From: a virus
Lineage: Duplodnaviria > Heunggongvirae > Uroviricota > Caudoviricetes
DNA: 11,884 nucleotides
Virus record (IMG/VR): IMGVR_UViG_2703719368_000012
Location: 1 to 11,884 of that record
Strand: one strand, 5' to 3'
In this document: in pieces, positions 1 through 11,884 of the stretch
How positions within the stretch are numbered: the first letter of the stretch is position 1
Layout: each line of letters opens with the position of its first letter
Notes under the pieces: generated by a model
Seen by the model: only the letters and a program-made list of their open reading frames with translations
Databases searched by the model: none
Told to the model about the DNA's origin: nothing
Program-made: the position numbers and the translations under genes

Positions 1-2343
1 GCATCGTGCAGGGCGTTATGGCGTTCACCTTCGAATGGAATAGTCGTTCTTGCGTCGAAATCCATCACCAGTCCCAGAGCAACCATCGTTCTTACATCGC
101 GATCATTGGTGTAACGCCACGGGCAGGGGATCCCCTGCCGTTCATATGAACGGCGTAAAATCACGTTGTCGAAAGTTGCACCGTTACCCCAGACCTGAAC
201 AAAAAATTCACCGGAGTTTTCGTCGATAAATTCCCGGAATTGCAGCAGTGCATCATCCAACGTGATTTCATCGGTCAGAATGGAGGATTGTGCTTCGCGT
301 GACTGTTTCAGCCACCACTTAATGGTGTCCCGATCGATGACCCCACCTGCGGTTTCCAGATCGATAGTTTTGCTGAATTCTGGCCCCATCTCTCCGGTTG
401 CCGGATCAAAAAACTTACCGGCTATAGAGTTTATTGGCGCATCAGGATTTTTTCCCATTGTTTCAAGGTCAATCATCAGATGGTGCCACAACCTGCTGGT
501 GGATGAGATTTCATGATGACCGTTCACTTTAATTAAGGGATTTGCTGTTTCGCCAGTTTTATTATCGCTGGCGTGATACTGATCGCTGCCAGTGTTCTCC
601 TTGTGCAGATGTTCAGTGCCTTCCATTTCCTCCGGATCATTTTTCTGAGCTTCAGCCTGATTCTCTTCATCGAATGTTTCCAGGTAGGTTGCGTTCCCCA
701 TCACCGCACCACAGTCAGGACAGTTGCCGCCACCGGTCTGACCGCATGCGGTGCAAACTTTTTCCAGTTCCTGTTGCACTGCTGGTTCTGGTTGTTGTTC
801 TTCTGGCCCGTTTTGTTGCGTATCCGGGCTGTTTTGTTCCGCTTCTGGCTCATTTTGTTTCACGTTGGGCTGATTCTGGTCCTCAGCGTCGCGACTCTGG
901 ATCCCTTTCACCCATTTCGGATCATTCGGGTCGCTAATCCCTTCAACAAATTCACCACGTGATGCAGCAAGCAATTTATCGGCGTCAGGCTGGCTGATAT
1001 TGGCTGCCTGCATAATTTTGTTTACTTCGTCAGCGGTAACTTTTACCGGCTCTGATTGTTCGGAATCTTCAGCGGTATCCACATTTTGCGGTAAGCCCGT
1101 GTATGTGCCATTTTTTCGGGCAAAATATTCTTCTTTTGAGATTTCGGTACCGCCGGCAGCCAGCGCCTTGTCCAGACCAGAAAGTTTGTTTGCCCTGCCG
1201 TATTTTTCCCCGCCCTTATCGGTAAAGACGAAATAAAATGGTCCTTCACGCTCTACAGATGGTTCAGCTTCCACCAGGATTTCATTTTTTTGAGTATCGG
1301 ATTCTGCCGTCTCCACTGGAGCAGTTTGTGCTGCTGACGGCTGGAGAGCATCAGTAGAGCTCTGGTCTGTTTCTTCATGTTCAAACACGCCCTTTGTCGT
1401 CAGGTATTCACTGATATATTTGTTCAGTGCAACGGGATCTTTGTGAATATCGATCGGACGTTCGCGAACAAGGCCAAAAATAGTCTGACGGTCATAGCCA
1501 AGTGCTTCGGGCTGTTTGCGCATTGATGCTGAGATACGCTTCCAGTCTTCGCGATCCTTGTCGATAACCTCATTTGTCGCCCAGCGATGGATGGTACCGT
1601 CAATGTTTCCTGCATCCACATCACCGGGCCAGAGGGCGCAGGCCAGTTCATTGTCGAGTGTTTTCCATGTCTGTTTGTATTCGCGGCGAATGGCAAAAGA
1701 GATCAACAACAGACGTGTATTTTCCGGTTTCCTTGCGTTCACCTTCGCGACGTTTTTTCCAGATGCGCATCTCTGCCTGAATTTCAGGCCATTTAGCGCC
1801 AGGCTCACATTTATGCTTAACCCACCCGATGGCATGCAGTTTAAGTTCAGGATACATGGCGTTAACTTCTGGCATTTTCATCAACGCTTCAACGATATGT
1901 CCGCCGAATGTTGCCATGTCTTCCTGTAGTAATTCCTGTGCGCTAATCACCATATCAACGGTGATGTTTTCGCATGTGTCGAATTTAACCAGGACTGCGT
2001 TCTGTACTTCAGGGGACAGCTTGTCAAAATTGACGTTCATCGGATCGGATTCTGGTTCGACCGGTACAAAGGAAGCTGACTCCTCATCCCAGCGGTTTTC
2101 CTGCATATATTCGGTATCCCAGGAATCGAGGGCAGGGCGGGGTATGCCGGGTTTATCCTCGCAGACAATAAATTTATAAGCGCAGTCCTGAGCTGCCGGG
2201 AATTGCTCCAGAAATTGCCAGTGAAATTTTGCGCGTGCGCGACGCTCATCACCGGCTTCAATGGCAGTGGCCACCGCAACAGCGCTATCTTCTTTTATGG
2301 CCTGTTCGTCAGGAATAGCAGCGCAAATAAAGATTTTACTCAT
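1..2343 (-). CDS. Phage exonuclease (exodeoxyribonuclease VIII-like annotation class) with C-terminal DEDDh 3'-5' exonuclease domain; reading frame broken near 1695-1698; 3' end beyond window edge
   Basis: Minus-strand ATG at 2343 with GAGG about 10 nt upstream opens a 231-codon ORF (MSKIFICAAIPDEQ...) that stops at 1648. A second minus-strand frame, open from about 1740 to position 1 with no stop, continues plausibly (FAIRREYKQTWKTLDNELACALWPGDVDAGN...). It contains a Cys4 motif (CTACGQTGGGNCPDCGAV) and, near coordinates 1-500, DEDDh-like exonuclease motifs (MIDLETMG, WGNGATFD, HNALHDA). The two frames overlap around an A4/T4 run at 1695-1698. Confidence 0.8.
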
Positions 2344-2436
2344 TGTGTTTTAACCTCATTACAGATTTAAGGGTGAACAAATCCCTGCCATTGCTGGCAT
2401 ATAAAAATGAAACCGGATATTAATTACGGTGCTGTT

Positions 2437-2628
2437 TTAAAGTCCTGCCGGTATTTCGTTATTATTAGTGTGAGTAGTTTTATCTACCGGATAACAGTTA
2501 CCGGGAATTTTTTGTTCTGCTGCTGCAGCCATGCATTCTTTCATTGAACCGTATAAGCCAGTCACCAGCTCAAGAGATTCGCCGGAAACAAGATAAACTG
2601 TCAGAACGAGTGCAAATGTTGTATTCAT
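2437..2628 (-). CDS. Small hypothetical prophage protein, 63 aa, hydrophobic N-terminus (possible signal peptide or membrane anchor)
   Basis: ORF MNTTFALVLTVYLVSGESLELV...; AAGGA about 9 nt upstream of the ATG; its start overlaps the upstream gene stop in an ATGA arrangement (2625-2628), suggesting translational coupling. Confidence 0.5.
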   Translation of the reverse strand: MNTTFALVLTVYLVSGESLELVTGLYGSMKECMAAAAEQKIPGNCYPVDKTTHTNNNEIPAGL

Positions 2629-2813
2629 TGTTTATATCCTTTTTGCAGCAGGTCCAGACGAGCCAGCATTGAAGGAATGCATACTTCATTTAACAGGTCC
2701 TGCTCGAGTTTTCTCTGCTTAATGGCGTCTTCAATAAATGTTTTGTCTCCAGTGATAACGCCAATTTCGAAACGAAGTTCAGACGTGCTGGCATTACATG
2801 ATAACTTTTCCAT
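2625..2813 (-). CDS. Small early-left protein, possibly Kil-like host cell division inhibitor (62 aa)
   Basis: Internal ATG at 2811-2813 is preceded by GAGGA about 8 nt upstream; the longer track ORF to 2921 has no comparable RBS. Product MEKLSCNASTSELRFEIGVITGDKTFIEDAIKQ... loosely resembles lambda Kil (FIGDEKMFREAV) in my recollection; size and position between exonuclease and the distal early genes fit a kil-type gene. Confidence 0.45.
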   Translation of the reverse strand: MEKLSCNASTSELRFEIGVITGDKTFIEDAIKQRKLEQDLLNEVCIPSMLARLDLLQKGYKQ

Positions 2814-3386
2814 TATCGCGTCCTCAACAATGAATTTTGTGATGCGGTGCCTGGTGCCTCCAGGTGACGTTAACCAGTTAACAATTAACGCCGGATACAG
2901 AGCATTCTCGTTACTCAGCAAATGACCGCTTTACCGATTTAACTGTTCCGCGTGCGCTGAGCCGCATTCACCGCATCACAAAATTCACTTTTAAAAAAGG
3001 GCGGCAGAGCAGTTACGGAGTAAAACTGATACCGCCAAATGTCACCAGAATATTGATAACAGAGGGCGTTGCAGCGGGGTTGTCACTTAAGCGTATGGTC
3101 AACCTGACAACCCGGTGTCCTCAACGGGGAAAGAATAACCCCGCCATACTTACCGCCGCGCCATTTCGCGGATTGCCACAACCGGAAGCGCACGGTCGAA
3201 TTAAATTTAACGACGGCTCTAAGGGAGAAGGACTTCGCCGTGCACTTTCGTGTTATGCCCTGACTTTTCAGGGATATATCCTTTCAGTAAACTGTCAGTG
3301 CCGGATTCTTATCTGTGTCCGGCGCACGACCACACGTAGCAGCGTGTTGGTCTCCATTTTTAATTCAGCCCTTAATGGAGGATAAA

Positions 3387-3572
3387 ATGCCAAACAAACC
3401 ATGCCCTGCCTGTAACGCTCTTTCTGGCTTTTTAGAGAAGGGCGGTTATTACATTTTTAACTGTCCAGAACATGTTGAATTTCATATATCAAAACTTGAC
3501 AGTATCATTACAAAGCCAAATCAGTATCAGTCTGATTTACTGAATAAAGAGTTAAACGCCGCCCGAGATTAA
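3387..3572 (+). CDS. Small zinc-ribbon-like protein (61 aa), function unknown
   Basis: ATG at 3387 with GGAGGA 4 nt upstream (3377-3382). Product MPNKPCPACNALSGFLEKGGYYIFNCPEHVEF... has CPAC ... CPEH spacing typical of a small Zn ribbon. It is plus-strand, convergent with the next gene, inside an AT-richer segment. Confidence 0.45.
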   Translation: MPNKPCPACNALSGFLEKGGYYIFNCPEHVEFHISKLDSIITKPNQYQSDLLNKELNAARD

Positions 3573-3610
3573 GGGCGTAGTGGCCCATTAAAAATATTGC
3601 AAAGACCAAC

Positions 3611-4148
3611 TATTGTTGAACTGGATTAAACCAGTAATTCTCTATTGCTCTTATTGTTACCATCGGATGATTGCCGGGGGTTATTTTAAGTTCGGGAGGA
3701 AAAGGCTCTCCATCAGCAGCCATCATTGAGTATGTGAAATCCGCCGACGCAGTCCCTTTCATGATAATTCCGAATTTTTCAAGTAATGAGAGCAGTTCCG
3801 GTAATCCTGTGTCATCTGAATAACTTTCCTCATAGAAAGAAGCGATTGCCGCAGGAGATGACAGTTCTCGCTCTGCAATTTTTTTGTAGTTTTCCAGAAT
3901 TCTTTTTTTGAATACTTTTCCTCGACATGAAAACCCATCACCGAGGCAATCCGCTTTGCAGTTTCTTCAGTATTCTGGTTGTTTGTTACCGAAACAGAGT
4001 ACAATCCGGTAAACGCATCGCGCACATTACGAGCCATATTATCAATGTATTTCTTCGTTGCAGATTCTAATTCAACTTCGTTCAGACGTTGGTGAAGTGC
4101 ATGTGCTGCAATTTCCTGGATTTCTTTTAGTAAATCTTTAAATTCCAT
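3611..4148 (-). CDS. Hypothetical prophage accessory protein (about 179 aa if read through); frame interrupted at a homopolymeric A7 tract
   Basis: ATG at 4148 (MEFKDLLKEIQEIAAHALHQRLNEVELESATKKYIDNMARNVRDAF...). After KYSKK at the A7 tract (plus-strand T7 at 3903-3909; a second T7 at 3879-3885) the -1 frame continues protein-like (RILENYKKIAERELSSPAAIASFYEESYSDDTGLPELLSLLEKFGIIMKG...NYWFNPVQQ) to a stop at 3611-3613. The zero frame instead reads EFWKTTKKLQSENCHLLRQ... and stops at 3759. Total length 538 nt is not a multiple of 3. Confidence 0.5.
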
Positions 4149-4159
4149 CTTTAACTCCG

Positions 4160-4288
4160 TTAGTCGTTAGATTTTGCCGAACTGGAAAGCGCCTGTTTAA
4201 ACTCACTGAAGCTGAGAGCTTCCTCGCCTTCGGCAAGGCCTTCGAAGTATTCTTCGTAAGCCTTTTCCATGATTGTGTCGAAATCCAT
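4160..4288 (-). CDS. ydaG: YdaG-like small prophage protein (42 aa)
   Basis: ATG at 4286-4288 with AGGTGA about 7 nt upstream; product MDFDTIMEKAYEEYFEGLAEGEEALSFSEFKQALSSSAKSND matches my recollection of Rac-prophage YdaG; sits immediately downstream of the ydaF-like gene. Confidence 0.6.
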   Translation of the reverse strand: MDFDTIMEKAYEEYFEGLAEGEEALSFSEFKQALSSSAKSND

Positions 4289-4289
4289 A

Positions 4290-4445
4290 TCACTCACCTG
4301 AGTTTCTTTCCAGCCAGCGACGGGCACCATTTTCGGTTTTAAACGTTTTGCTTTTGGTATACGTCATCGCGGTGAATGTACCGTCCTGGTTGGGAAACAC
4401 GCCGTACACCAGAGATTCGTTGTTGCCAAGATCGATAGTATCCAT
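4290..4445 (-). CDS. ydaF: YdaF-like small prophage protein (51 aa)
   Basis: ATG at 4443-4445 with GAGG about 6 nt upstream; product MDTIDLGNNESLVYGVFPNQDGTFTAMTYTKSKTFKTENGARRWLERNSGE matches my recollection of Rac YdaF (DUF1391). The track ORF extends 13 codons further upstream without an RBS. Confidence 0.65.
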   Translation of the reverse strand: MDTIDLGNNESLVYGVFPNQDGTFTAMTYTKSKTFKTENGARRWLERNSGE

Positions 4446-4621
4446 GTTGACCTCATTTCCCCTTAACGCCGGGTAGCGGAACAAAAACCTGCTGCATAGT
4501 TATTAAAGTTGAACCCTGCCGTCATGTTCATACGCCTCGGGCTGGCTACTTACCCCCTGACCACTGCTTGGTAACTCGAAGTATTGCCCGGCGTTCTGTG
4601 GGGCGGGGTGGGTGGTTGGTG

Positions 4622-4661
4622 TATGTAATCTACAATTAAAAACTGTTTTTGTGTCAACAGT
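4622..4661. promoter_or_regulatory. OL-like operator palindrome with embedded leftward (pL-like) promoter
   Basis: Perfect inverted repeat, 16-bp arms (4622-4637 and 4646-4661, AATTAAAAACTGTT / AACAGTTTTTAATT core) with an 8-bp spacer. On the minus strand the spacer and arm contain a consensus TTGACA (plus-strand 4643-4648). The unit is near-identical to the palindrome at 5667-5705. Confidence 0.5.
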
Positions 4662-4671
4662 TTTTAATTGT

Positions 4672-4694
4672 TGTTTTGGGCAAAAAAATCCCTC
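4672..4694 (-). terminator. Rho-independent terminator ending the repressor-antitoxin-toxin transcription unit
   Basis: On the minus strand: stem TCCCTC/GAGGGA (4679-4684 and 4689-4694) with a GAAA-type tetraloop, followed by a T7 run (plus-strand A7 at 4672-4678); lies 30-50 nt downstream of the toxin stop at 4723. Confidence 0.6.
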
Positions 4695-4722
4695 GAAAGA
4701 GGGAGTATGAAAATTGTTCAAC

Positions 4723-5010
4723 TCAGATAGAGAAGGGAAATTGTCGCCGAGAATGTGTCACGCTTACAATCTCAATGCTTGAAGCAGCTACTCTGTACAG
4801 GATTATGTAGTTAGGGTGGGTCACGATCTCTCTCAATCCAGAAACCCGTTCGCTTGGTGGATATAAGTACGGATGCTCAGATAGAGGTAATACCGATGTT
4901 TCAATGCGTATTTTTAGTCTACGTGCTGCCGGTGGGTTCTCCTTGGCGATGTAAGTTATGATCTGGCGCAAATCATCGCGAGCAGACGGTAGCCATAAAA
5001 TGGGTAACAT
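4723..5010 (-). CDS. Type II toxin, ParE/RelE family (95 aa)
   Basis: Product MLPILWLPSARDDLRQIITYIAKENPPAARRLKIRIETSVLPLSEHPYLYPPSERVSGLREIVTHPNYIILYRVAASSIEIVSVTHSRRQ carries the ParE/RelE signature pattern (W..A..DL..I..YI, GLRE, YII.YR, V.H..R). Its start overlaps the upstream small gene stop by 1 nt (TAATG). Confidence 0.7.
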   Translation of the reverse strand: MLPILWLPSARDDLRQIITYIAKENPPAARRLKIRIETSVLPLSEHPYLYPPSERVSGLREIVTHPNYIILYRVAASSIEIVSVTHSRRQFPFSI

Positions 5011-5201
5011 TACTCGCTCTTGTTAGTTACAGCAATTTGAGCAATAAGATTTTCCATTTCAGCCATTACCTCGTCATGTGGAATTGCGGGGCGAGTGTCT
5101 GCAAGGCTTGACGTTACTTTAGTGCGCAACCATTCGTTGTAACTGTTTTCTTGTTCGGTAGTTTCGAATTCTGAAACTATCGGAGAAAGGGCTGTACCCA
5201 T
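5010..5201 (-). CDS. Putative cognate antitoxin of the ParE/RelE-family toxin (63 aa)
   Basis: ATG at 5199-5201 with GAGGAG 5 nt upstream; small acidic product (MGTALSPIVSEFETTEQENSYNEWLRTKVTSSLADTRPAIPHDEVMAEMENLIAQIAVTNKSE); immediately upstream of and overlapping the toxin gene in the canonical antitoxin-first order. Confidence 0.6.
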   Translation of the reverse strand: MGTALSPIVSEFETTEQENSYNEWLRTKVTSSLADTRPAIPHDEVMAEMENLIAQIAVTNKSE

Positions 5202-5228
5202 GGCATAACTCCTCTTCTTGTACTGTGG

Positions 5229-5630
5229 TCACGCCCGGCGGCTTTTTTGTGCCGCCAGCCACCTAGCAATGGTTTCTTCCATTGATTTTTTCTTGTCTTT
5301 GATTTCTTGAAGCATTTTTTCTTGGTCTTCCTCAGGAAACGCACTAAAAGCTTGGAGCAGTTCGCGTTGGCGAGGACCAATTTTCATCGTGTCAGGGGTG
5401 AAAATTTGCTCACACTCTTCAGGAGGCAATAAAAACCAATGCAATGGATGCCCTGAAACCTCAACCAGTTTATCCAAACTTGAGGCTTTAGGTGTAGCCT
5501 TACCGCTGACCCATTGTTGAACAGTTTGTTGTGTCACACCAATTCTACGGGCAAGCTCAGCCTGGCTCCATCCAGTTTCCTGAAGAAGCTTGCTGATTCT
5601 GTACATAGATACTTCTAGGGCGCTCATCAT
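5229..5630 (-). CDS. Prophage repressor-like HTH (XRE/Cro-CI family) DNA-binding protein, about 133 aa, no peptidase domain
   Basis: HTH signature SQAELARRIGVTQQTVQQWVSGKATPK; transcribed divergently from the cro-like gene across the operator region at 5631-5738. ATG at 5630 has no Shine-Dalgarno (possibly leaderless); an alternative ATG at 5606 gives 125 aa. Confidence 0.7.
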   Translation of the reverse strand: MMSALEVSMYRISKLLQETGWSQAELARRIGVTQQTVQQWVSGKATPKASSLDKLVEVSGHPLHWFLLPPEECEQIFTPDTMKIGPRQRELLQAFSAFPEEDQEKMLQEIKDKKKSMEETIARWLAAQKSRRA

Positions 5631-5666
5631 TATTCAATTTTACAGGTAAATACTGTTAAAAGCATC

Positions 5667-5705
5667 ACAATAAAAAACTGTTGATTGCATACAGTTTTTT
5701 ATTGT
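5667..5705. promoter_or_regulatory. OR-like operator palindrome with divergent promoters (rightward pR-like; repressor promoter on the opposite strand)
   Basis: Inverted repeat with 15-bp arms (5667-5681 ACAATAAAAAACTGT and 5691-5705 ACAGTTTTTTATTGT), 9-bp spacer containing TTGATT; an extra ACTGTT half-site at 5651-5656; candidate -10 TATAGT at 5716-5721 ahead of the GGAGG RBS and ATG at 5739. Confidence 0.55.
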
Positions 5706-5738
5706 AGGCTTTGCTTATAGTTTTTAGAGGAGGGCAAA

Positions 5739-6011
5739 ATGCTAGATAGCACTCGCGAAAAAATTAGGCAGAAATACACTCAGGCTGAAATAGGTCGTTA
5801 TATGGGGGTCGCTCAACAGACTGTTTGGCAATGGTTTAGCTTTGGCGTTCCCCCAAAGCAGGTAATTCCGTTATGCCAACTAATGAAGTGGGAAGTTACC
5901 CCGCATGAAATCCGCCCAGATATTTATCCTAACCCAACCGACGGTTTACCTGTTGGATGTAAGGTTAACACATCAAATGCGCCGGAGTTGATTCATGAAA
6001 ATCAAGCATGA
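5739..6011 (+). CDS. ydaS: Cro-like HTH regulator, YdaS family (90 aa)
   Basis: ATG at 5739 with GGAGG 8 nt upstream; HTH AEIGRYMGVAQQTVWQW and a C-terminal ...EVTPHEIRPDI motif recalling the YdaS-family ELRPD motif; first gene of the rightward operon. Confidence 0.7.
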   Translation: MLDSTREKIRQKYTQAEIGRYMGVAQQTVWQWFSFGVPPKQVIPLCQLMKWEVTPHEIRPDIYPNPTDGLPVGCKVNTSNAPELIHENQA

Positions 6012-6420
6012 ACACATCCGCATGGCGATGAATGCCTGGGCGCATCCGGACGGCGAAAAAGTACCGGCTGCGAAAATTACCAAAGCGTATTTCGAGCTGG
6101 GAATGACGTTCCCGGAACTGTATGACGACAGCCATCCGGAAGCCATGGCTCGCAATACTCAGAAAATTTTCCGCTGGGTGGAGAAAGACACTCCTGATGC
6201 GGTTAAAAAAATTCAGGCGTTGTTACCAGCGATCGAAAAAGCGATGCCGCCTCCGCTGGTGGCCCGAATGCGCAGCCACAGTTCCGCTTATTTTCGGGAG
6301 TTGGTAGAGACGAAGGAACGGCTGGTGAAAGATATTGATGATTTCGTTGCATCAGCGATCGTTCTGTTCGATCAGATGAATCGTGGTGGCCCGGCAGGAA
6401 ACACTCTGGCTGTGCATTAA
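5995..6420 (+). CDS. ydaT: YdaT-like protein (141 aa), toxic-when-derepressed family in Rac
   Basis: Product begins MKIKHEHI, as I recall for Rac YdaT; start overlaps the end of the ydaS-like gene by 17 nt; GGAG about 8 nt upstream. Confidence 0.7.
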   Translation: MKIKHEHIRMAMNAWAHPDGEKVPAAKITKAYFELGMTFPELYDDSHPEAMARNTQKIFRWVEKDTPDAVKKIQALLPAIEKAMPPPLVARMRSHSSAYFRELVETKERLVKDIDDFVASAIVLFDQMNRGGPAGNTLAVH

Positions 6421-6433
6421 TTGGGTAATAAAT

Positions 6434-6943
6434 ATGAGTAATGACAAAAAATTGACACTGAGCGTTTACGAAAACAGTCCGCACATCTGGCGTGGCGGTT
6501 TATCTGATGTGGAGCTGGCAGAGTGGTTGATACATAAAGCTAATGCGCTGCTCTGGCGTTTGTCAGCCAGAGAACAGCGCAAGGAAACCAGAATAAAGCT
6601 GGCTGATGCAGAAGCGTGTGCCGGGCTTATTGAGGATTATACAAATCTTGGTATTTCTTCAGCAGAGAGTGATCCCATTCAGCCTCTGAGCAGGGAGTCA
6701 ATCCAGCACGCTGGTTGTATGGCACATCTTGTAACTGCTCGTCAACATGAGGTGGGTATTGGATCACTTCCGGCGGGATATTCGCTGATTCCAGAGCTGG
6801 TTGAAGCAAGAAAATCAGTTCAGAAAAAGAGAGATGACGCACTTCAATTATTGAGAGAGCACTATGGCGCGATACCAGAATGCGAACAGCGTCGATACCC
6901 TGAAGGTTATGAATGGATGCAGTCTCTTTTTGAAGTTCGCTAA
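6434..6943 (+). CDS. Hypothetical early-right protein (169 aa)
   Basis: ATG at 6434 (MSNDKKLTLSVYENSPHIWRGGLSDVELAEWL...); ordinary codon usage; the RBS is weak, and an alternative GTG at 6383 would overlap the ydaT-like gene. Confidence 0.55.
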   Translation: MSNDKKLTLSVYENSPHIWRGGLSDVELAEWLIHKANALLWRLSAREQRKETRIKLADAEACAGLIEDYTNLGISSAESDPIQPLSRESIQHAGCMAHLVTARQHEVGIGSLPAGYSLIPELVEARKSVQKKRDDALQLLREHYGAIPECEQRRYPEGYEWMQSLFEVR

Positions 6944-7160
6944 TCAATATGTCGAGACGAAGGTATGTTTCGGCGCGCAGCCAGGCTCTGTAATCCGGGA
7001 GCATTTCGGGGCTGTTACACCAGCGGTTTGTTGCTGCAACATTTAATACATGAGCCTGATAAAGGCTTTTCAAAAAATACATGTCGAACCTCCTCTGGTT
7101 CTGTCGATTGGGAACCACAGATTATATCCGGAGGAAGGTTCGGCACCAGATGAGGTAGCC

Positions 7161-8252
7161 ATGCGTGATTACGCAAAAGTTTCTCCGCGATTCTGGCTGG
7201 GAGAAACGGGGAGAGAACTTAGAAAGGCGGGTGCAGAAGCGCAAGTTGTTGCTTTTTACCTGATGACATCCCCTCACGCAAATATGCTGGGTTTGTATTA
7301 CCTGCCAGTTTTATACCTTGCTCATGAAACCGGGCTTGGTCTGGAAGGGGCTTCAAAGGGGCTTAAAAGGGCTGTTGAAGCTGGTTTTTGTAGCTATGAC
7401 CATGATGCAGAGATGGTCTGGGTCCATGAAATGGCAGCCTGGCAGGTTGGGGAAACGTTGAAGCCTGGCGATAACCGTTGTGCAGGTGTCAGGAATGAGT
7501 ATGCATCATTACCTGAAAACGCTTTTCTGTCAGTGTTTTACGACAGATATAAAACGGATTTCCATCTGGATGTGAGGCGGAATAATAGCCGAAATTCGGT
7601 AAGGGGCTTCGAAGGGGCTTTTAAGGGGCTTCGAAGCCAAGAACAGGAACAGGAGCAGGAGAAAGAACAGGAACAGGACAAAAACACTATGGTTCATGGC
7701 AAAAAAAACACCACGAACCAGGCAGGGGATGTTCAGACCGTCAATCCTGGTCAGCCAGCAGGCACGACACCGGAAGCCGATTCGGGCGCTGTGCAGCAGG
7801 TGATGACCGCAGGGTCGGAGCAATCACACCAACTGCAGCAGCCTGAAGCCGATTCCGCCATTCAGCGGGAAGCCGATCGGGTAGTCCCGGAAAGCACCGG
7901 GCAGTCTGTGGGACGAGTGGATTATCCGGATGTGTTCGAACAGGTCTGGCGGGAATACCCGTTGCGTGCTGGGGCAAACCCGAAGAAATCCGCTTTCAGT
8001 GCCTGGAAGGCCAGATTGCGCGAGGGGGTGCCACCAGAGACCATGCTGGATGGTGTGAGGCGTTACGCGAGATACCTGGCGGCGACCGGGAAAGCGGGAA
8101 CGGAATTTGTTCAGCGAGCGACGACGTTTTTTGGGCCGGACCGGAATTTTGAAAACCCCTGGTTGCTCCCGGTAAGCGGCACGAACAACCAGCGTTGTGT
8201 GAATCATATTTCTGAACCGGATACCGAAATTCCGCCGGGATTCAGGGGGTGA
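7161..8252 (+). CDS. ydaU: YdaU-like (DUF1376) putative replication initiation or replisome-organizer protein with an EQ-rich linker (363 aa from this start)
   Basis: ATG at 7161 with GAGGT 4 nt upstream. N-terminal region (FWLGETGRELRKAGAEAQVVAFYLMTSPHANMLGLYYLPVLYLAHETG...EMVWVHEMAAWQVGE) matches my recollection of Rac YdaU; it directly precedes the DnaC-like gene, as lambda O precedes P. The track ORF begins at ATG 7050 but has no RBS there. Confidence 0.75.
   Translation: MRDYAKVSPRFWLGETGRELRKAGAEAQVVAFYLMTSPHANMLGLYYLPVLYLAHETGLGLEGASKGLKRAVEAGFCSYDHDAEMVWVHEMAAWQVGETLKPGDNRCAGVRNEYASLPENAFLSVFYDRYKTDFHLDVRRNNSRNSVRGFEGAFKGLRSQEQEQEQEKEQEQDKNTMVHGKKNTTNQAGDVQTVNPGQPAGTTPEADSGAVQQVMTAGSEQSHQLQQPEADSAIQREADRVVPESTGQSVGRVDYPDVFEQVWREYPLRAGANPKKSAFSAWKARLREGVPPETMLDGVRRYARYLAATGKAGTEFVQRATTFFGPDRNFENPWLLPVSGTNNQRCVNHISEPDTEIPPGFRG
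7345..7375 (+). repeat. Iteron-like direct repeats, cluster 1 (AAGGGGCTT at 11-bp spacing)
   Basis: AAGGGGCTT at 7345-7353 and 7356-7364, with a degenerate third copy (AAAAGGGCT) at about 7367; exactly 11-bp periodicity. Confidence 0.45.
7601..7682 (+). repeat. Iteron-like direct repeats, cluster 2 (3 x AAGGGGCTT at 11-bp spacing) followed by a tandem hexanucleotide (GAACAG-like) array and an A-rich tract; candidate origin within the initiator gene
   Basis: AAGGGGCTT at 7601-7609, 7612-7620 and 7623-7631; then GAACAG GAACAG GAGCAG GAGAAA GAACAG GAACAG GACAAA (7641-7682), encoding the QEQEQEQEKEQEQDK linker; then A-rich sequence including an A8 run. Confidence 0.5.
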
Positions 8253-8258
8253 TGTGGC

Positions 8259-9005
8259 ATGAAAAACATTGCGGCAGCCGGGGTTCTTGAACGTATTCGC
8301 AGACTTGCACCACAGGCGTCGGTTCCACCGTACCGGACGGTGGAGGAGTGGCGGGAATGGCAACTTGCTGAAGGACGAAAACGCAGCGAGGAGATTAACC
8401 GCCAGAATCACCAGTTGCGGGTGGAAAAAATCCTGAATCGTTCGGGCATCCAGCCTCTGCACAGCAAATGCTCGTTTGCGAATTATCAGGTGCAGAACGA
8501 CGGGCAAAAATACGCGCTGAGCCAGGCCAAATCCATAGCTGACGAACTGATGACCGGGTGCACGAATTTTGTGTTCAGCGGTAAAACCGGCACCGGGAAA
8601 AATCACCTTGCAGCGGCGATGGGTAACCGGCTGATGGCGAAGGGGCGCAGCGTGATTATCGTCACCGTGTCTGATGTCATGAGCGTGTTGCATGACAGCT
8701 ACGACAACGGCAAATCCGGGGAAAAATTTTTACAGGAGCTTTGCAGTGTTGATTTGCTGGTCCTGGATGAAATAGGCGTTCAGCGGGAGACGAAAAACGA
8801 GCAGGTGGTATTACACCAGATAATTGATCGCCGGACAGCATCACTGTGCAGTGTCGGGATGTTAACAAACCTGAATCATGCCGCAATGAGTACACTTCTT
8901 GGTGAGAGGATTATGGACCGCATGACCATGAACGGTGGTCGATGGGTGACGTTTAACTGGGATAGCTGGCGTCCAAATGTCAGCAATATGAGGGTTGTGA
9001 AGTAA
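8259..9005 (+). CDS. ydaV: DnaC-like AAA+ helicase loader (YdaV-like replication protein, 248 aa)
   Basis: Walker A GKTGTGKNHLAAA and Walker B LLVLDEIG; N-terminus MKNIAAAGVLERIRRLAP as I recall for Rac YdaV; ATG 6 nt after the upstream stop, AGGGGG RBS. Confidence 0.9.
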   Translation: MKNIAAAGVLERIRRLAPQASVPPYRTVEEWREWQLAEGRKRSEEINRQNHQLRVEKILNRSGIQPLHSKCSFANYQVQNDGQKYALSQAKSIADELMTGCTNFVFSGKTGTGKNHLAAAMGNRLMAKGRSVIIVTVSDVMSVLHDSYDNGKSGEKFLQELCSVDLLVLDEIGVQRETKNEQVVLHQIIDRRTASLCSVGMLTNLNHAAMSTLLGERIMDRMTMNGGRWVTFNWDSWRPNVSNMRVVK

Positions 9006-9026
9006 TTTTGTCCGGAGGAAATTTTA

Positions 9027-9614
9027 ATGGAAACCGTATCTGACGCACTGAAAGCACTGAAAAAAGCCTCTTCACATGTGGTGGCAGCTCGCCTTGGAAT
9101 CAGTCGTGAAGAGGCTGTCAACGAGCTGTGGGAACTCAAAATAAATGGCGTCGTTGATAAAACTGGTCACACCTGGTTTCTGGCTGGCGAAGGTGAATCC
9201 CGGGTAACCGAAGAGCGGCCAGTAAAATCTGAAGCACAGGATATGCTGACCGGGGAGGTCGAACAAAAAGTTACCGCAGACATGATGATTGAGTTTATCG
9301 GTCAGGATGGGGCTAAAACGTGTGAGGAACTGGCGGGTAAGTTCGGTGTCAGTACTCGCAAGGTTGCTTCCACGCTGGCGGTGGTAACCGCAACGGGGCG
9401 GCTGGCACGCGTTAATCAGAACGGTAAATTTCGTTACTGCATGCCGGGCGATAATTTACCAGCAGAGCCGAAAGCCGCGCTGGTAACGGAAAGTGATGGT
9501 AAGGCCTTTCCTCAGAACGTGTTGTATCGGAAAAGTGATTGCCGGAGGCGCTTATGGCAAAAGTATTTACACAGGAAGAGCGGGAAAAAATTAAAGGGCA
9601 GGTTGTTGAGCTAG
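9027..9614 (+). CDS. Hypothetical prophage protein with winged-helix-like repeats (possibly DUF1627-like), 195 aa
   Basis: ATG at 9027 with GGAGG 8 nt upstream; two similar HTH-like segments (ARLGISREEAVNELWELKINGVVDKTG and ELAGKFGVSTRKVASTLAVVTATGRLARV). The last 25 or so codons overlap the next gene and look low-quality. Confidence 0.6.
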   Translation: METVSDALKALKKASSHVVAARLGISREEAVNELWELKINGVVDKTGHTWFLAGEGESRVTEERPVKSEAQDMLTGEVEQKVTADMMIEFIGQDGAKTCEELAGKFGVSTRKVASTLAVVTATGRLARVNQNGKFRYCMPGDNLPAEPKAALVTESDGKAFPQNVLYRKSDCRRRLWQKYLHRKSGKKLKGRLLS

Positions 9615-9967
9615 TACGCCGGAGTGGGCGCGAGACGTTACGGCAACTGGAAGCCAAGACAGGTGCGACAAGATATCTGATGAGCGTTCTTGCCAGAGAG
9701 CTGGTTGCCAGTGGCGATGTATACAACTCTGGTTACGGGTTATTCCCATCTGAACAGGCTCGTAAGGACTGGCAAAACGCCCGCAAAAAACTATCGAGGG
9801 CAAAACTGAAGAAACCGGTTGTGGTTGATCCTGACCTTATCTGGTCATTACCAGACGGAGAAATACGCCGCTATGACAGGCAATTGAACATAATTTGTAG
9901 TGAGTGCCGTAACAGTGAAGTGATGCAGCGAGTTTTGATATTTTACACAGGAGTAATGATGGAATAG
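9554..9967 (+). CDS. Hypothetical prophage protein (137 aa)
   Basis: ATG at 9554 with GGAGG 5 nt upstream; product MAKVFTQEEREKIKGQVVELVRRSGRETLRQLEAKTGATRYLMSVLARELVASGDVY... includes a winged-helix-like segment and a CSECRNSE motif near the C-terminus. Confidence 0.55.
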   Translation: MAKVFTQEEREKIKGQVVELVRRSGRETLRQLEAKTGATRYLMSVLARELVASGDVYNSGYGLFPSEQARKDWQNARKKLSRAKLKKPVVVDPDLIWSLPDGEIRRYDRQLNIICSECRNSEVMQRVLIFYTGVMME

Positions 9968-10318
9968 TGAAAATAACATGAAACCTTTGGATTCTGGTGT
10001 TTCAGTGGATGGGAAAAGAGCAGATACATAGAAAATGAATAGCAATAATTCACAGTCTGGATGTTGTTTGTATGCTTATAAAATGATCCTAGTATGCATT
10101 GCCGGAGTTGAATCAGCTCCAATGAAGAAACTGAGAGGAGTATTTAGAAGATAGCTAAATGGATGTAATTATTAGTATCTAAAAAATAGTATTTTTGAAA
10201 TGGGTCTAAGAACACAACAATGTACAAATGAGAAGTTATCTTTTAATATGTTCAAAGACCCATTAGGATTGATATCAGTTATGTTAGCTAGATTGATAAA
10301 GTGATTACATATTTTCTG

Positions 10319-11092
10319 TTATATGCTGAAATGAATAATGCTATTCCAGAGTGCAGCAGAGAAAGTCTCCTGATGATTGAGCTCTGGAAATTGTACAATA
10401 GAAAAATTACTGTATTTTTCTGTCAAAATATTTCTCAAAACAGATTCCGCTTTGATGGCTTCAGGATATAAAGATGCGGAGTAATCAAGGCTAAGATTTC
10501 CGTTAAGCAAGCATATACTTTTAGTGTGCTTTGATTCTGATATATCATCTTTAATTATCTTGATGATTCTTTCATTCTGCCATAGAAGTGATGGTGCAGA
10601 TATATAATAATAGTTAAAGCATGAATTATTTTTTAAGCAATCAAGCACAAAAATAGCACCTAGCGAGTGCCCCCATATACCGATTCTGGAACTGTTCGGA
10701 GCAATAGTACTAACCCATGGCATGATCTGAGTTAGTAATAATTCTCGGAAAGACTGGCTTCCTCCACCAGTAAAGTAGATCCATGCTGGTTTAGAGTTAT
10801 CAACAATAGCATTTTCACCATCAGGAGTATAATCGTAAGCACGGCGATGAATGCTAAGGTTATTCCAAGATTCATAACCAAGTGTAACTAACACTGGTGG
10901 ATTGGGTAGTGCATCAATAACAGGCAGAATATCAGAAATGTAATTGTTGGCACTATTCCCATCAAGTATATAAAGAGTTGCATTATTTTTTTTAATGTTT
11001 TTTGGAGTAAAAATACATATTTTATATTTGGTGTCATGGTTAATTGAGTTAAATATGCGTGTTTGACAATGAATGTCCATATGTTTAGTCAT
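10319..11092 (-). CDS. Alpha/beta-hydrolase esterase (PF00756-like putative esterase / siderophore-esterase fold), 257 aa, no signal peptide; AT-rich cargo (moron) gene
   Basis: Catalytic nucleophile elbow GHSLG; N-terminal LYILDGNS motif and IFTP strand typical of the Fes/IroE/esterase D family; GGAG-type RBS upstream of ATG 11092; local base composition is strongly AT-rich relative to the flanking prophage genes. Confidence 0.8.
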   Translation of the reverse strand: MTKHMDIHCQTRIFNSINHDTKYKICIFTPKNIKKNNATLYILDGNSANNYISDILPVIDALPNPPVLVTLGYESWNNLSIHRRAYDYTPDGENAIVDNSKPAWIYFTGGGSQSFRELLLTQIMPWVSTIAPNSSRIGIWGHSLGAIFVLDCLKNNSCFNYYYISAPSLLWQNERIIKIIKDDISESKHTKSICLLNGNLSLDYSASLYPEAIKAESVLRNILTEKYSNFSIVQFPELNHQETFSAALWNSIIHFSI

Positions 11093-11492
11093 GCGTTCTC
11101 CCCATGAGCATTAAAGGATGCTTAAGATATGCTATGTCACTGATAAAAAATTTGTTGTGTGTGTTTAGTTATTTTATCTACCTCCATTATGATTTAAGAC
11201 TGATATATGTTATCAGCAAAGGTACATCGTTATTATTTTACCTGTCAATACATTTGATATTGATTATCGTTTACATCGCTTGCTTAGGAAATTGAAGGCA
11301 GGTAACTATCATGTCAATGAACTAACCCACAGTCTAACGTACTTCTTTCCCCAATCACCAACAACCAAATTCCTGTTATCACCACTGGGATTTTGGCGCA
11401 ACTTCATGGTGCAGAGGTAAATAGCATCAAGCAAAATCTCTTTTTCCGTTGTTGTCCTTATGGGACGTCTGTCTTTCTGACCGATTTCATAT

Positions 11493-11521
11493 TGGCGAGG
11501 TAATGGGAAGTTAAGTAGAAT
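11493..11521 (+). promoter_or_regulatory. Putative hok mRNA promoter
   Basis: TTGGCG (11493-11498), 17-nt spacer, TAGAAT (11516-11521); predicted start near 11529, just upstream of the GAGGC/GCCTC leader hairpin (11536-11550). This parallels the plasmid R1 hok leader as I recall it. Confidence 0.45.
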
Positions 11522-11589
11522 AGCTGCGGGTGCTTGAGGCTATCTGCCTCGGGCATGAACACCAACGGCAGATAGAGAAAAGCCCCAGT

Positions 11590-11657
11590 TAACATTACGC
11601 GTCCTGCAAGACGCCTAACATTAATCTGAGGCTCAATCTATGAACGGCAAATCTAGG
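11590..11657 (-). ncRNA. sok: Putative Sok-like antisense RNA (type I antitoxin), approximate boundaries
   Basis: Minus-strand candidate -10 TAAGAG (plus-strand 11664-11669) sits opposite the start region of the upstream ORF, as in R1 sok; a hairpin GCGTC/GACGC (11599-11614) lies at the expected 3' end. Ends are not determinable from sequence alone. Confidence 0.35.
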
Positions 11658-11696
11658 TTAGCCTCTTACGTGCCGAAAGGCAAGGAGAAGCAGGCT

Positions 11697-11852
11697 ATGA
11701 AGCAGCAAAAGGCGATGTTAATCGCCCTGATCGTCATCTGTTTAACCGTCATAGTGACGGCACTGGTAACGAGGAAAGACCTCTGCGAGGTACGAGTCCG
11801 AACCGGCCAGACGGAGGTCGCTGTCTTCACAGCTTACGAACCTGAGGAGTAA
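11697..11852 (+). CDS. hok: Hok/Gef-family type I toxin (51 aa); an in-frame upstream ATG at 11640 gives a mok-like leader reading frame
   Basis: Product MKQQKAMLIALIVICLTVIVTALVTRKDLCEVRVRTGQTEVAVFTAYEPEE is a canonical Hok-family sequence (single TM helix, conserved Cys, C-terminal YEPEE), closely matching my recollection of HokD/RelF. The track ORF 11640-11852 extends the frame upstream by 19 codons. Confidence 0.85.
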   Translation: MKQQKAMLIALIVICLTVIVTALVTRKDLCEVRVRTGQTEVAVFTAYEPEE

Positions 11853-11859
11853 GAGACCT

Positions 11860-11881
11860 GGCGGGGGAGAAATCCCTCGCC
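11860..11881 (+). terminator. 3' stem-loop of the hok mRNA (terminator or fold-back element); downstream part beyond window edge
   Basis: GGCGGGGG (11860-11867) pairs with CCCTCGCC (11874-11881) including one G-U pair, loop AGAAAT; begins 8 nt after the hok stop codon. The U-tract, if any, lies outside the window. Confidence 0.4.
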
Positions 11882-11884
11882 ACC

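Follow-up and report, generated by a model that had tools for sequence, protein, structure and literature searches.

What is a toxin gene of the ParE/RelE type, together with its antitoxin, doing directly behind a prophage repressor, in the slot that lambda gives to rexA-rexB? The question is raised by a three-gene operon on the minus strand of an 11,884-nt stretch of caudoviral DNA (IMG/VR record IMGVR_UViG_2703719368_000012, positions 1 to 11,884; hereafter the window). With a probability of roughly 85%, we read the region as the paaR1-paaA1-parE1 type II toxin–antitoxin (TA) operon, seated in the lambda-type immunity region that belongs to the cryptic lambdoid prophage Sp4/CP-933M of Escherichia coli O157:H7.

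The operon comprises paaR1 (5229-5630), which encodes a 133-aa DicA/PaaR-type prophage repressor, paaA1 (5010-5201), which encodes a 63-aa PaaA-family antitoxin, and parE1 (4723-5010), which encodes a 95-aa ParE-family toxin. The corresponding genes of O157:H7 strain Sakai are ECs_1069, annotated ‘phage repressor protein’, ECs_1068 and ECs_1067. All three reading frames had been placed exactly by the original prediction. Of the two junctions it described, the 27-nt gap between repressor and antitoxin stands and contains a Shine-Dalgarno sequence for paaA1 (GAGGAG, 5209-5214, minus strand), but the ‘1-nt junction’ is really a 1-nt overlap of the paaA1 stop and the parE1 start (TAATG). This geometry, with one terminator downstream, suggests that the three genes are co-transcribed; paaR2, paaA2 and parE2 of the sister locus are co-transcribed (PMC8630535).

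The 95-aa product had been assigned to the ParE/RelE family pending a profile search, and that search returned Pfam ParE_toxin (PF05016) at E=2.9e-17 (63.5 bits, cutoff 23). RefSeq names the protein a RelE/ParE family toxin, and it matches ParE2 in PDB entry 5cw7_B at E=3e-36, with 62 of 93 residues identical (67%). The small upstream gene, correctly anticipated to be an antitoxin, belongs to the PaaA family: Pfam PaaA2 (PF21217, E=5.6e-19, 68.3 bits, cutoff 27) is the sole family found for PaaA1 among the Pfam matches listed (best 25 of 35), and the PaaA2 structure 3zbe is matched at E=1.4e-20, with 70% identity to PaaA2 across 56 aa. NCBIfam also labels PaaA1 ‘RelB family antitoxin’ (NF050103), by a 45-residue model. 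PaaA1 lacks a DNA-binding domain, with no RHH match among the Pfam matches listed (best 25 of 35), so transcriptional control would fall to PaaR1, jointly with YdaS and, at OM/PRE, YdaT. Neither protein has homology to RexA or RexB, ParE_toxin and PaaA2 being their only hits among the Pfam matches listed (best 25 of 35); the likeness of paaA1-parE1 to rexAB is positional only.

PaaR1 matches HTH_3 (E=2.3e-12) and Phage_CI_repr in Pfam, its residues 11-130 match NCBIfam DicA, and its best PDB match is the 434 repressor. It joins a 434-like HTH to a PaaR/DicA-type C-terminal domain: BLASTP aligns the C-terminal 98 aa only with PaaR2 (42% identity, E=2e-20), and identity to K-12 DicA is 28%. No Peptidase_S24 match appears among the Pfam matches listed (best 25 of 35), and the C-terminus aligns with PaaR2 and DicA instead of an S24 peptidase domain. 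Lacking the S24 autocleavage domain, as PaaR2 likewise does (PMC8630535), PaaR1 is not expected to react to SOS as CI does through RecA.

Across positions 4600-5760, the window and Sakai Sp4 (ECs_1067-1069) share 1160 of 1161 nt, the sole difference being T versus A at 4637, within the OL operator at 4632-4646. Sp4 and CP-933M are treated as one prophage (PMC2884950), and a homologue of paaR2-paaA2-parE2, the system of the cryptic O157:H7 prophage CP-933P/Sp12, is stated to be on CP-933M (Jurenas 2021, PMC8630535). O157:H7 genomes carry exactly two paaA-parE places each, and Hallez 2010, as cited in PMC4803016, speaks of ‘two paralogous systems’ in O157:H7. Since the other copy is paaR2-paaA2-parE2, the window should hold paaR1-paaA1-parE1, a name that we apply by this elimination together with the CP-933M statement. 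A full-text literature search for the locus tags ECs1067, ECs1068 and ECs1069 found no paper.

The paaA-parE pair occurs at 99% identity or above in 437 complete genomes, the exact PaaA1 and ParE1 proteins are each present on >1000 contigs, and PaaA-ParE cassettes are found in ~15% of complete E. coli genomes. When the module was compared by megablast with 50,697 phage records, nothing matched; the module is thus known from bacterial-chromosome prophages and missing from deposited phage genomes at identities of at least ~85%. Relatives in E. coli and Salmonella keep the repressor-PaaA-ParE order with divergent YdaS-YdaT, each with its own OR/OL repeats. In Bartonella, a PaaA-ParE pair stands alone, without an upstream repressor, and in the Qin prophage of K-12, dicA is followed directly by ydfA with no TA pair, a natural empty site. 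Together, the empty site and the stand-alone pair support the insertion of a TA cassette into an immunity region.

These data also bear on whether the module survives only as an inactive remnant of a prophage in decay. Sp4/CP-933M is cryptic and IS-ridden, a CP-933P-type copy (L002) is broken by an IS91-family element, and in the paralogue ParE2 activity went undetected at steady state and was seen in neither state of the switch (PMC8630535). Against a loss of all current activity stand three intact reading frames, the near-identical copies and exact proteins counted above, preserved operators, Shine-Dalgarno sequence and terminator, and a report of a functional and specific PaaA1-ParE1 pair (Hallez 2010, as relayed by PMC4803016). 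We regard an inert module as very improbable.

A 15-bp operator, ACAATWAAAAACTGT, brackets the operon, occurring twice at OL and three times at OR; five matches were reached in 0 of 200 shuffles. The original prediction had placed the genes between two operator palindromes; operators do flank the operon, but they are five copies of a shorter repeat. At OL, ACAATTAAAAACTGT (4632-4646, plus strand) matches the consensus exactly and a second copy (4657-4671, minus strand) is inverted relative to it, the two together forming the 40-bp palindrome noticed earlier. At OR, an OR3-like copy with 3 mismatches (5642-5656, plus) overlaps the PRM core, an OR2-like copy (5667-5681, plus) is exact, and an OR1-like copy (5691-5705, minus), also exact, lies nearest the ydaS promoter side. 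We infer that PaaR1 binds these sites. Its recognition helix, TQQTVQQ, resembles that of 434 (TQQSIEQ), and the idea that this explains the ACAA/ACAG half-sites is kept as a lead rather than a result, because a related repressor (locus L004; helix AQQSVQK) has different repeats, CACTTTTAAAGT.

Downstream of parE1, beginning 18 nt past its stop codon, lies an intrinsic terminator at 4682-4704 on the minus strand (TCCCTC-TTTC-GAGGGA-T7; the 6-bp stem includes 4 GC pairs and closes a 4-nt loop, and seven T follow). The hairpin and T-run had been put at 4672-4694, a position that we correct here. It is the sole minus-strand terminator-like site in 4300-6100, and its folding energy does not stand out from that of shuffled sequences (z=-1.46). 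By position, it probably ends the paaR1-paaA1-parE1 transcript and would be the analogue of lambda t-imm. The L004 relative has a different hairpin, then a T-run, at this place.

Promoters were assigned by position and analogy, not by consensus strength: a sigma-70 consensus scan picked up neither PRM nor PR nor PL, whose hexamers are weak or oddly spaced. Reading the sequence directly, we find a candidate PRM -10 element (TAAAAT, 5637-5642, minus) 6 nt before the paaR1 ATG, which would imply a leaderless paaR1 mRNA. The same TAAAAT-6 nt-ATG arrangement is present in L004, CP-933P has GATAAT-6 nt-ATG with the same leaderless geometry, and leaderless translation of paaR2 was proven by 5' RACE and N-terminal sequencing (PMC8630535). 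Between the two OL operators, a candidate PL -35 element (TTGACA, 4652-4657, minus) could drive leftward transcription into ydfA...DicF...dicB. Its spacer to TAGATT is 19 nt, and the scan therefore did not call it. TTGACA recurs at the equivalent position in L004, and in CP-933P, experiments located the PL933P promoter at the corresponding site (PMC8630535). A structured RNA in the conserved ~130-nt leader downstream of PL was considered and dropped, as its fold was no better than shuffles (z=+1.33). Rfam gave no RNA family within 4500-6100; DicF and sok, the only matches in the window, both lie elsewhere.

Divergent from paaR1 is a ydaS-family gene (5739-6011, plus; PF15943, E=8e-10), followed by ydaT (5995-6420, plus; PDB 8bt1, E=1.4e-82; 3c4r, E=3.9e-83). 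In the sister-locus literature, PaaR2 is the CI analogue and YdaS and YdaT are the analogues of Cro and CII. The YdaS of the window gave zero BLASTP alignment with the CP-933P-type YdaS, and its YdaT is ~90% identical to the crystallised CP-933P YdaT (PDB 8bt1). At the ydaS/ydaT junction lies the YdaT operator OM, TTGATTCATGAAAATCAA (5988-6005, plus), which matches the published TTGATT-N6-AATCAA exactly; no other site in the window has 0 mismatches. Its placement agrees with the description in PMC9986795, in which the repressor-TA operon of CP-933P has its CII-like alternative promoter at OM. The window thus contains both arms of a lambda-type switch, that is, divergent repressor and Cro-like genes with common operators and further copies at a distant OL, as well as a CII-type gene with its own operator after the Cro analogue.

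This arrangement weighs on a different view of PaaR1, namely that it is the detached DNA-binding half of an antitoxin, serving the TA pair only, with the lambda-like layout a coincidence. The absence of a DNA-binding domain from PaaA and the first account of the system, which made it a three-component TA with a regulator of its own (Hallez 2010, as cited in PMC4803016), would both fit. However, the same operators recur ~1 kb away at OL, before a Qin-type ydfA-DicF-dicB operon; PaaR1 is DicA-like over its full length, and the DicA of Qin occupies the same slot with no TA pair; in the Sakai annotation, the gene is the phage repressor of Sp4; PaaR2 was shown mainly to repress ydaST and PL (PMC8630535); and the Bartonella pair manages without an upstream repressor. 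A regulator dedicated to the TA pair is therefore improbable, and PaaR1 is best taken as an immunity repressor.

Much of what such a locus may do can be drawn from the sister copy, which was treated in Hallez 2010, Sterckx 2016, Jurenas 2021 (PMC8630535) and De Bruyn 2023 (PMC9986795), with structures 5CW7, 5CZE, 5CZF, 3ZBE and 8BT1. Experiments there established a lambda-like immunity switch, bistability and an addiction module (Jurenas 2021, PMC8630535), the module stabilising a mini-F plasmid through post-segregational killing that depends on ClpXP/ClpAP (PMC8630535). The paralogue toxin is nucleoid-associated and triggers SOS. By extension, PaaR1, a DicA/CI-type repressor with no RecA-cleavable domain, would bind ACAATWAAAAACTGT at OR and OL, repress the rightward ydaS-ydaT promoter and leftward PL, and autoregulate PRM, a logic shown for the paralogue and here proposed for these particular operators. 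PRM would yield a leaderless paaR1-paaA1-parE1 mRNA ending at the terminator, and a repressed prophage would make antitoxin and toxin continuously, as shown for the paralogue and consistent with the conserved geometry. PaaA1, presumably disordered and protease-labile, would neutralise ParE1 by direct binding. If the locus were lost or replaced, decay of PaaA1 through ClpXP/ClpAP would leave stable ParE1 to intoxicate the cell, as in the paralogue. Such post-segregational killing would make the immunity region addictive and protect the prophage from being deleted or having its immunity region swapped by recombination. For the sister locus, a role in limiting rearrangements is a hypothesis whose benefit is undemonstrated (PMC8630535). 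The two O157 copies could coexist independently, since PaaA1 and PaaA2 reportedly do not cross-neutralise (Hallez 2010, via PMC4803016). Prophage retention by addiction, one of the functions originally predicted, thus has experimental support in the paralogue (PMC8630535) and extends to this copy by analogy.

The other predicted function was defence of the lysogen by abortive infection or superinfection exclusion. Under this reading, the pair is mainly an anti-phage module and a functional analogue of RexAB: a superinfecting phage would stop host transcription or trigger loss of the antitoxin, and ParE1, no longer neutralised, would kill the cell or arrest it before phage could be released. 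The positional premise is sound. Operator mapping places the pair directly behind the repressor, between OR and OL, in the rexA-rexB slot, with expression expected alongside the repressor, and the same replacement of rexA-rexB is stated for paaA2-parE2 of CP-933P (De Bruyn 2023, PMC9986795). TA systems, including members of the RelE/ParE superfamily, are reportedly being tied increasingly to phage defence, HigBAC being one example, and PMC6832061 deals with the protection that DicB, encoded in the adjacent PL operon, gives E. coli against phage infection. Nonetheless, PADLOC-DB v2 gave zero families for ParE1 or PaaA1 at E<=0.01 and generic HTH matches only for the repressor, the literature search found no phage challenge of PaaA-ParE, and post-segregational killing is the phenotype that experiments established for the paralogue (PMC8630535). 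We consider defence unlikely as the main role, while noting that anti-phage and addiction roles are not mutually exclusive.

The paaR-paaA-parE system is already known, its name and characterisation both dating from 2010 (Hallez 2010, as relayed in later papers), and the rexAB-position analogy is in print (PMC9986795). With crystal structures and a detailed regulatory dissection available for the sister copy, the discovery value of the locus is low; of modest value is that a tripartite TA and its immunity-region architecture are recoverable from raw sequence. Two features may be undescribed: the 434-like HTH of PaaR1 with its own operators, heteroimmune to CP-933P, and the YdaT protein and OM operator common to CP-933M and CP-933P. 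Two conjectures follow, and we hold both doubtful. One is that PaaA1-ParE1, and PaaA-ParE cassettes at large, are a RexAB replacement triggered by superinfection, which raises the question of whether a repressor-linked ParE module protects lysogens from phage. The other, prompted by near-identical YdaT and identical OM in both prophages, is that the two O157 copies are coupled, in which case lytic-side induction of one prophage would boost repressor-TA transcription in the other.

The closest known system is that of CP-933P, with which the window has in common the gene order, strand logic, spacing and flanking OR/OL, the toxin (67% identical), the antitoxin (70%) and the PaaR C-terminal domain, divergent ydaS-ydaT with near-identical YdaT and an identical OM, and ydfA (DUF1391) downstream of PL. 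In contrast, the 434-like N-terminal HTH of PaaR1 cannot be aligned to PaaR2, the Cro-analogue YdaS is unrelated in sequence, and the 15-bp ACAATWAAAAACTGT takes the place of GTTTAGTAA-type repeats. Different HTHs and different operators suggest that the two loci are heteroimmune, and, with YdaS also differing, quantitative traits, bistability among them, may not carry over. Canonical parDE (RK2, Caulobacter, Vibrio) has the same ParE fold, a labile protein antitoxin just upstream and, likewise, a function in addiction and post-segregational killing; it differs in using ParD where the operon has a disordered PaaA with no RHH DNA-binding domain, in that the window operon is autoregulated by a separate repressor, and in that the toxin target here is not established as gyrase (PMC8630535). 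Qin DicA-DicC/dicB supplies a DicA-family repressor alike over its full length and the same leftward ydfA-ydfB-...-DicF-dicB operon, but there DicC, instead of a YdaS-family protein, fills the Cro role and no TA pair separates dicA from the dicB-operon promoter. Compared with lambda, the window shows no sequence homology to CI, RexA or RexB, only two OL sites were detected, and the passengers are a TA pair instead of the RexAB sensor and ion-channel pair. The lambda layout, PL/OL-rexB-rexA-cI-PRM/OR/PR-cro-cII, is nonetheless matched position for position, including a predicted leaderless repressor mRNA, three OR operators, OL operators, a terminator before OL, and passenger genes that stand behind the repressor and would be expressed in the lysogen.

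The three minus-strand ORFs lie exactly where the original prediction placed them: a 133-aa repressor (paaR1, 5229-5630), a 63-aa antitoxin (paaA1, 5010-5201) and a 95-aa toxin (parE1, 4723-5010). The repressor and antitoxin genes are separated by the anticipated 27-nt gap, which contains a GAGGAG Shine-Dalgarno motif (5209-5214), while the supposed 1-nt junction that follows is a one-base overlap of paaA1 and parE1 (TAATG). A terminator-like site (TCCCTC-TTTC-GAGGGA and T7) is present after the toxin, on the minus strand 18 nt past the parE1 stop, at 4682-4704 and thus about 10 nt away from the 4672-4694 first proposed; it is the sole such minus-strand site within 4300-6100.

Profile searches against Pfam uphold both gene assignments. 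ParE1, predicted as a ParE/RelE-family toxin, matches ParE_toxin over its full length (E=2.9e-17), and its closest solved structure is ParE2 of E. coli O157 (PDB 5CW7/5CZE; E=3e-36, 62/93 identical). The small antitoxin-like protein matches the PaaA2 "stability determinant" family (E=5.6e-19) and PaaA2 itself (PDB 3ZBE, E=1.4e-20; 70% identity across 56 residues). PaaR1 carries an HTH_3 domain and is closest among solved structures to the phage 434 repressor; the NCBIfam DicA model covers residues 11-130, with 28% identity to K-12 DicA, and no S24 peptidase domain is among the Pfam matches listed. On the opposite strand lie a YdaS-family HTH protein (5739-6011) and a YdaT (5995-6420) near-identical to the crystallised YdaT of CP-933P, a cryptic prophage of E. 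coli O157:H7 (PDB 8BT1, E=1.4e-82).

Many E. coli O157:H7 chromosomes match window positions 4500-6100 at 100% identity; in them the host prophage is integrated beside yccA-tusE-rlmI. The Sakai reference annotates it as "prophage Sp4, lambda-like phage", and the genes as ECs_1067 (plasmid stabilization system protein), ECs_1068 (hypothetical) and ECs_1069 (phage repressor protein); positions 4600-5760 differ from Sakai by one mismatch in 1161 bases. Sp4 and CP-933M are treated as one prophage (PMC2884950). The PaaA antitoxin family and the paaR-paaA-parE operon of three components go back to Hallez et al. 2010 (cited in PMC3141249, summarised in PMC4803016), who also reported two paralogous copies in O157:H7, neither antitoxin neutralising the toxin of the other copy. 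According to Jurenas et al. 2021 (PMC8630535), CP-933M carries a homologue of the CP-933P operon paaR2-paaA2-parE2. Since sensitive blastn finds exactly two places matching the pair in O157:H7 genomes, and the window proteins are paralogous and non-identical to the CP-933P set, the locus is, by elimination, paaR1-paaA1-parE1. The system is therefore already known; the observation is confirmed and its interpretation supported.

The two predicted operator palindromes do mark repeats at both ends of the operon. A 15-bp element, ACAATWAAAAACTGT, is present there five times, as an inverted pair at the left cluster, OL (4632-4646 and 4657-4671), and as three copies at the right cluster, OR (5642-5656, with 3 mismatches, 5667-5681 and 5691-5705). 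Five matches were reached in 0/200 dinucleotide-preserving shuffles. The window differs from Sakai Sp4 at position 4637, inside OL (ACAATTAAAAACTGT vs Sakai ACAATAAAAAACTGT); with the Sakai base, OL and the OR sites have the same sequence. TAAAAT stands 6 nt ahead of the paaR1 ATG, as it does in L004 (a locus of a third immunity type), with GATAAT at the same spacing in CP-933P. One operator overlaps this candidate PRM core and another lies just upstream, an OR3/OR2-like arrangement. Between the OL operators, TTGACA points toward the ydfA...DicF...dicB operon, and 5988-6005 matches the published YdaT operator (OM), TTGATT-N6-AATCAA, with zero mismatches. Every structural element of the CP-933P circuit has its counterpart in the window.

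In CP-933P, experiments showed that a promoter ahead of paaR drives a common transcript of the three genes (PMC8630535, PMC4803016), and the paaR2 mRNA is leaderless, as is lambda cI; the operators bound by PaaR2 and YdaS overlap and lie between the divergent operons, both proteins additionally repress PL933P, a promoter situated past the TA genes, YdaT turns on an alternative promoter where ydaS and ydaT meet, and the switch is bistable (PMC8630535). PaaA2 is a substrate of the ClpAP and ClpXP proteases, and the locus stabilises an unstable mini-F with an efficiency equal to ccdAB (PMC8630535, PMC4803016). De Bruyn et al. 2023 (PMC9986795) say of CP-933P that paaA2-parE2 take the place of rexA-rexB. 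The experiments on the paralogue back the addiction or retention function originally suggested. In the repressed prophage, a leaderless paaR1-paaA1-parE1 mRNA would run from PRM to the terminator-like site, and ParE1 would be kept inactive by labile PaaA1. Loss or replacement of the locus would free ParE1 and kill or arrest the cell, so that ParE1 release would make the immunity region addictive. We infer PaaR1 binding to these five operators and every phenotype ascribed to the window copy. A superinfection-exclusion or abortive-infection role, also proposed for this pair in the lambda rexAB position, is compatible with addiction and seems unlikely: PADLOC models gave no match for toxin or antitoxin, no phage challenge of any PaaA-ParE system was found in the literature, and the module was absent from deposited phage genomes at megablast sensitivity.

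Homologues of paaA-parE occur in 833/5,426 complete E. coli genomes (at least 99% identical in 437 of the 833), and each exact window protein in >1000 contigs. The full arrangement of HTH repressor, PaaA, ParE and divergent YdaS-YdaT is kept in E. coli and Salmonella relatives; L004 has OR/OL repeats and a terminator of its own sequence. In K-12 Qin, ydfA directly follows dicA without a TA pair, a natural empty site, and a Bartonella pair (toxin 74% identical to ParE1) lacks an upstream repressor. Relatives, empty site and Bartonella pair all agree with a published model in which a DicA-type immunity region acquired a two-gene TA cassette by insertion (PMC8630535). In Bartonella vinsonii (L009, 2245-3788), a CAP12-PCTIR TIR-domain gene immediately precedes the pair; finding the cassette in an alphaproteobacterium, beside a defence-type gene, shows a striking spread across classes. 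In a CP-933P-type copy (L002, 1109-2890), an IS91-family transposase unit inside the paaA2/parE2 junction parts toxin from antitoxin, and the called toxin ORF is lengthened to 108 aa.

The leftward PL operon encodes the DicF antisense sRNA (2999-3050, minus strand; Rfam RF00039, 76.9 bits) and ydfA (4290-4484), ydfB and dicB homologues, which marks the operon controlled from OL/PL as a cell-division-inhibition operon of the Qin dicB type. The untranslated leader of about 130 nt between PL and ydfA (4490-4620, minus strand) is nearly identical in the window, L002 and L004, and the operators just upstream are wholly different, which places a mosaic boundary at the PL -10. The leader has no Rfam match and folds no better than shuffles (z=+1.33). 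At 11528-11852 (plus strand), a hok/mok-type ORF (11640-11852, RefSeq hokD) and an overlapping sok antisense RNA (RF01794, 105.6 bits) make up a second toxin-antitoxin system of the same prophage, this one of type I. Between ydaT and the replication genes, a RefSeq 'ECs1072 family phage-associated protein' (6627-7118, minus strand) overlaps the start of the O-like replication gene region (7050-8252, plus strand). Compared with strain F6667 (L001), AA replaces 64 bp of a recE-like exonuclease gene at 1697-1698, leaving only a 231-aa N-terminal ORF (1648-2343), and 261 bp of a DUF1627 gene at 9516-9517. Neither junction is contiguous in any of the 5,426 complete E. coli genomes, every best match falling in two pieces around the missing segment; the window may be a rare variant, may carry an assembly artefact or may have been edited.

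We found no published description of heteroimmunity with a common YdaT/OM arm, a detail inside a known system. PaaR1 and PaaR2 can be aligned across the C-terminal 98 residues only (42% identity; motif FSAFPE[ED][DE]Q...ARW[LI]AAQK), and their N-terminal HTH regions are unlike. The YdaS-family Cro-analogue does not align at all with its CP-933P counterpart, and the operators differ (ACAATWAAAAACTGT vs GTTTAGTAA-type repeats). Because HTH, Cro-analogues and operators are all different, the window prophage and CP-933P are predicted to be heteroimmune while sharing the YdaT/OM establishment arm.
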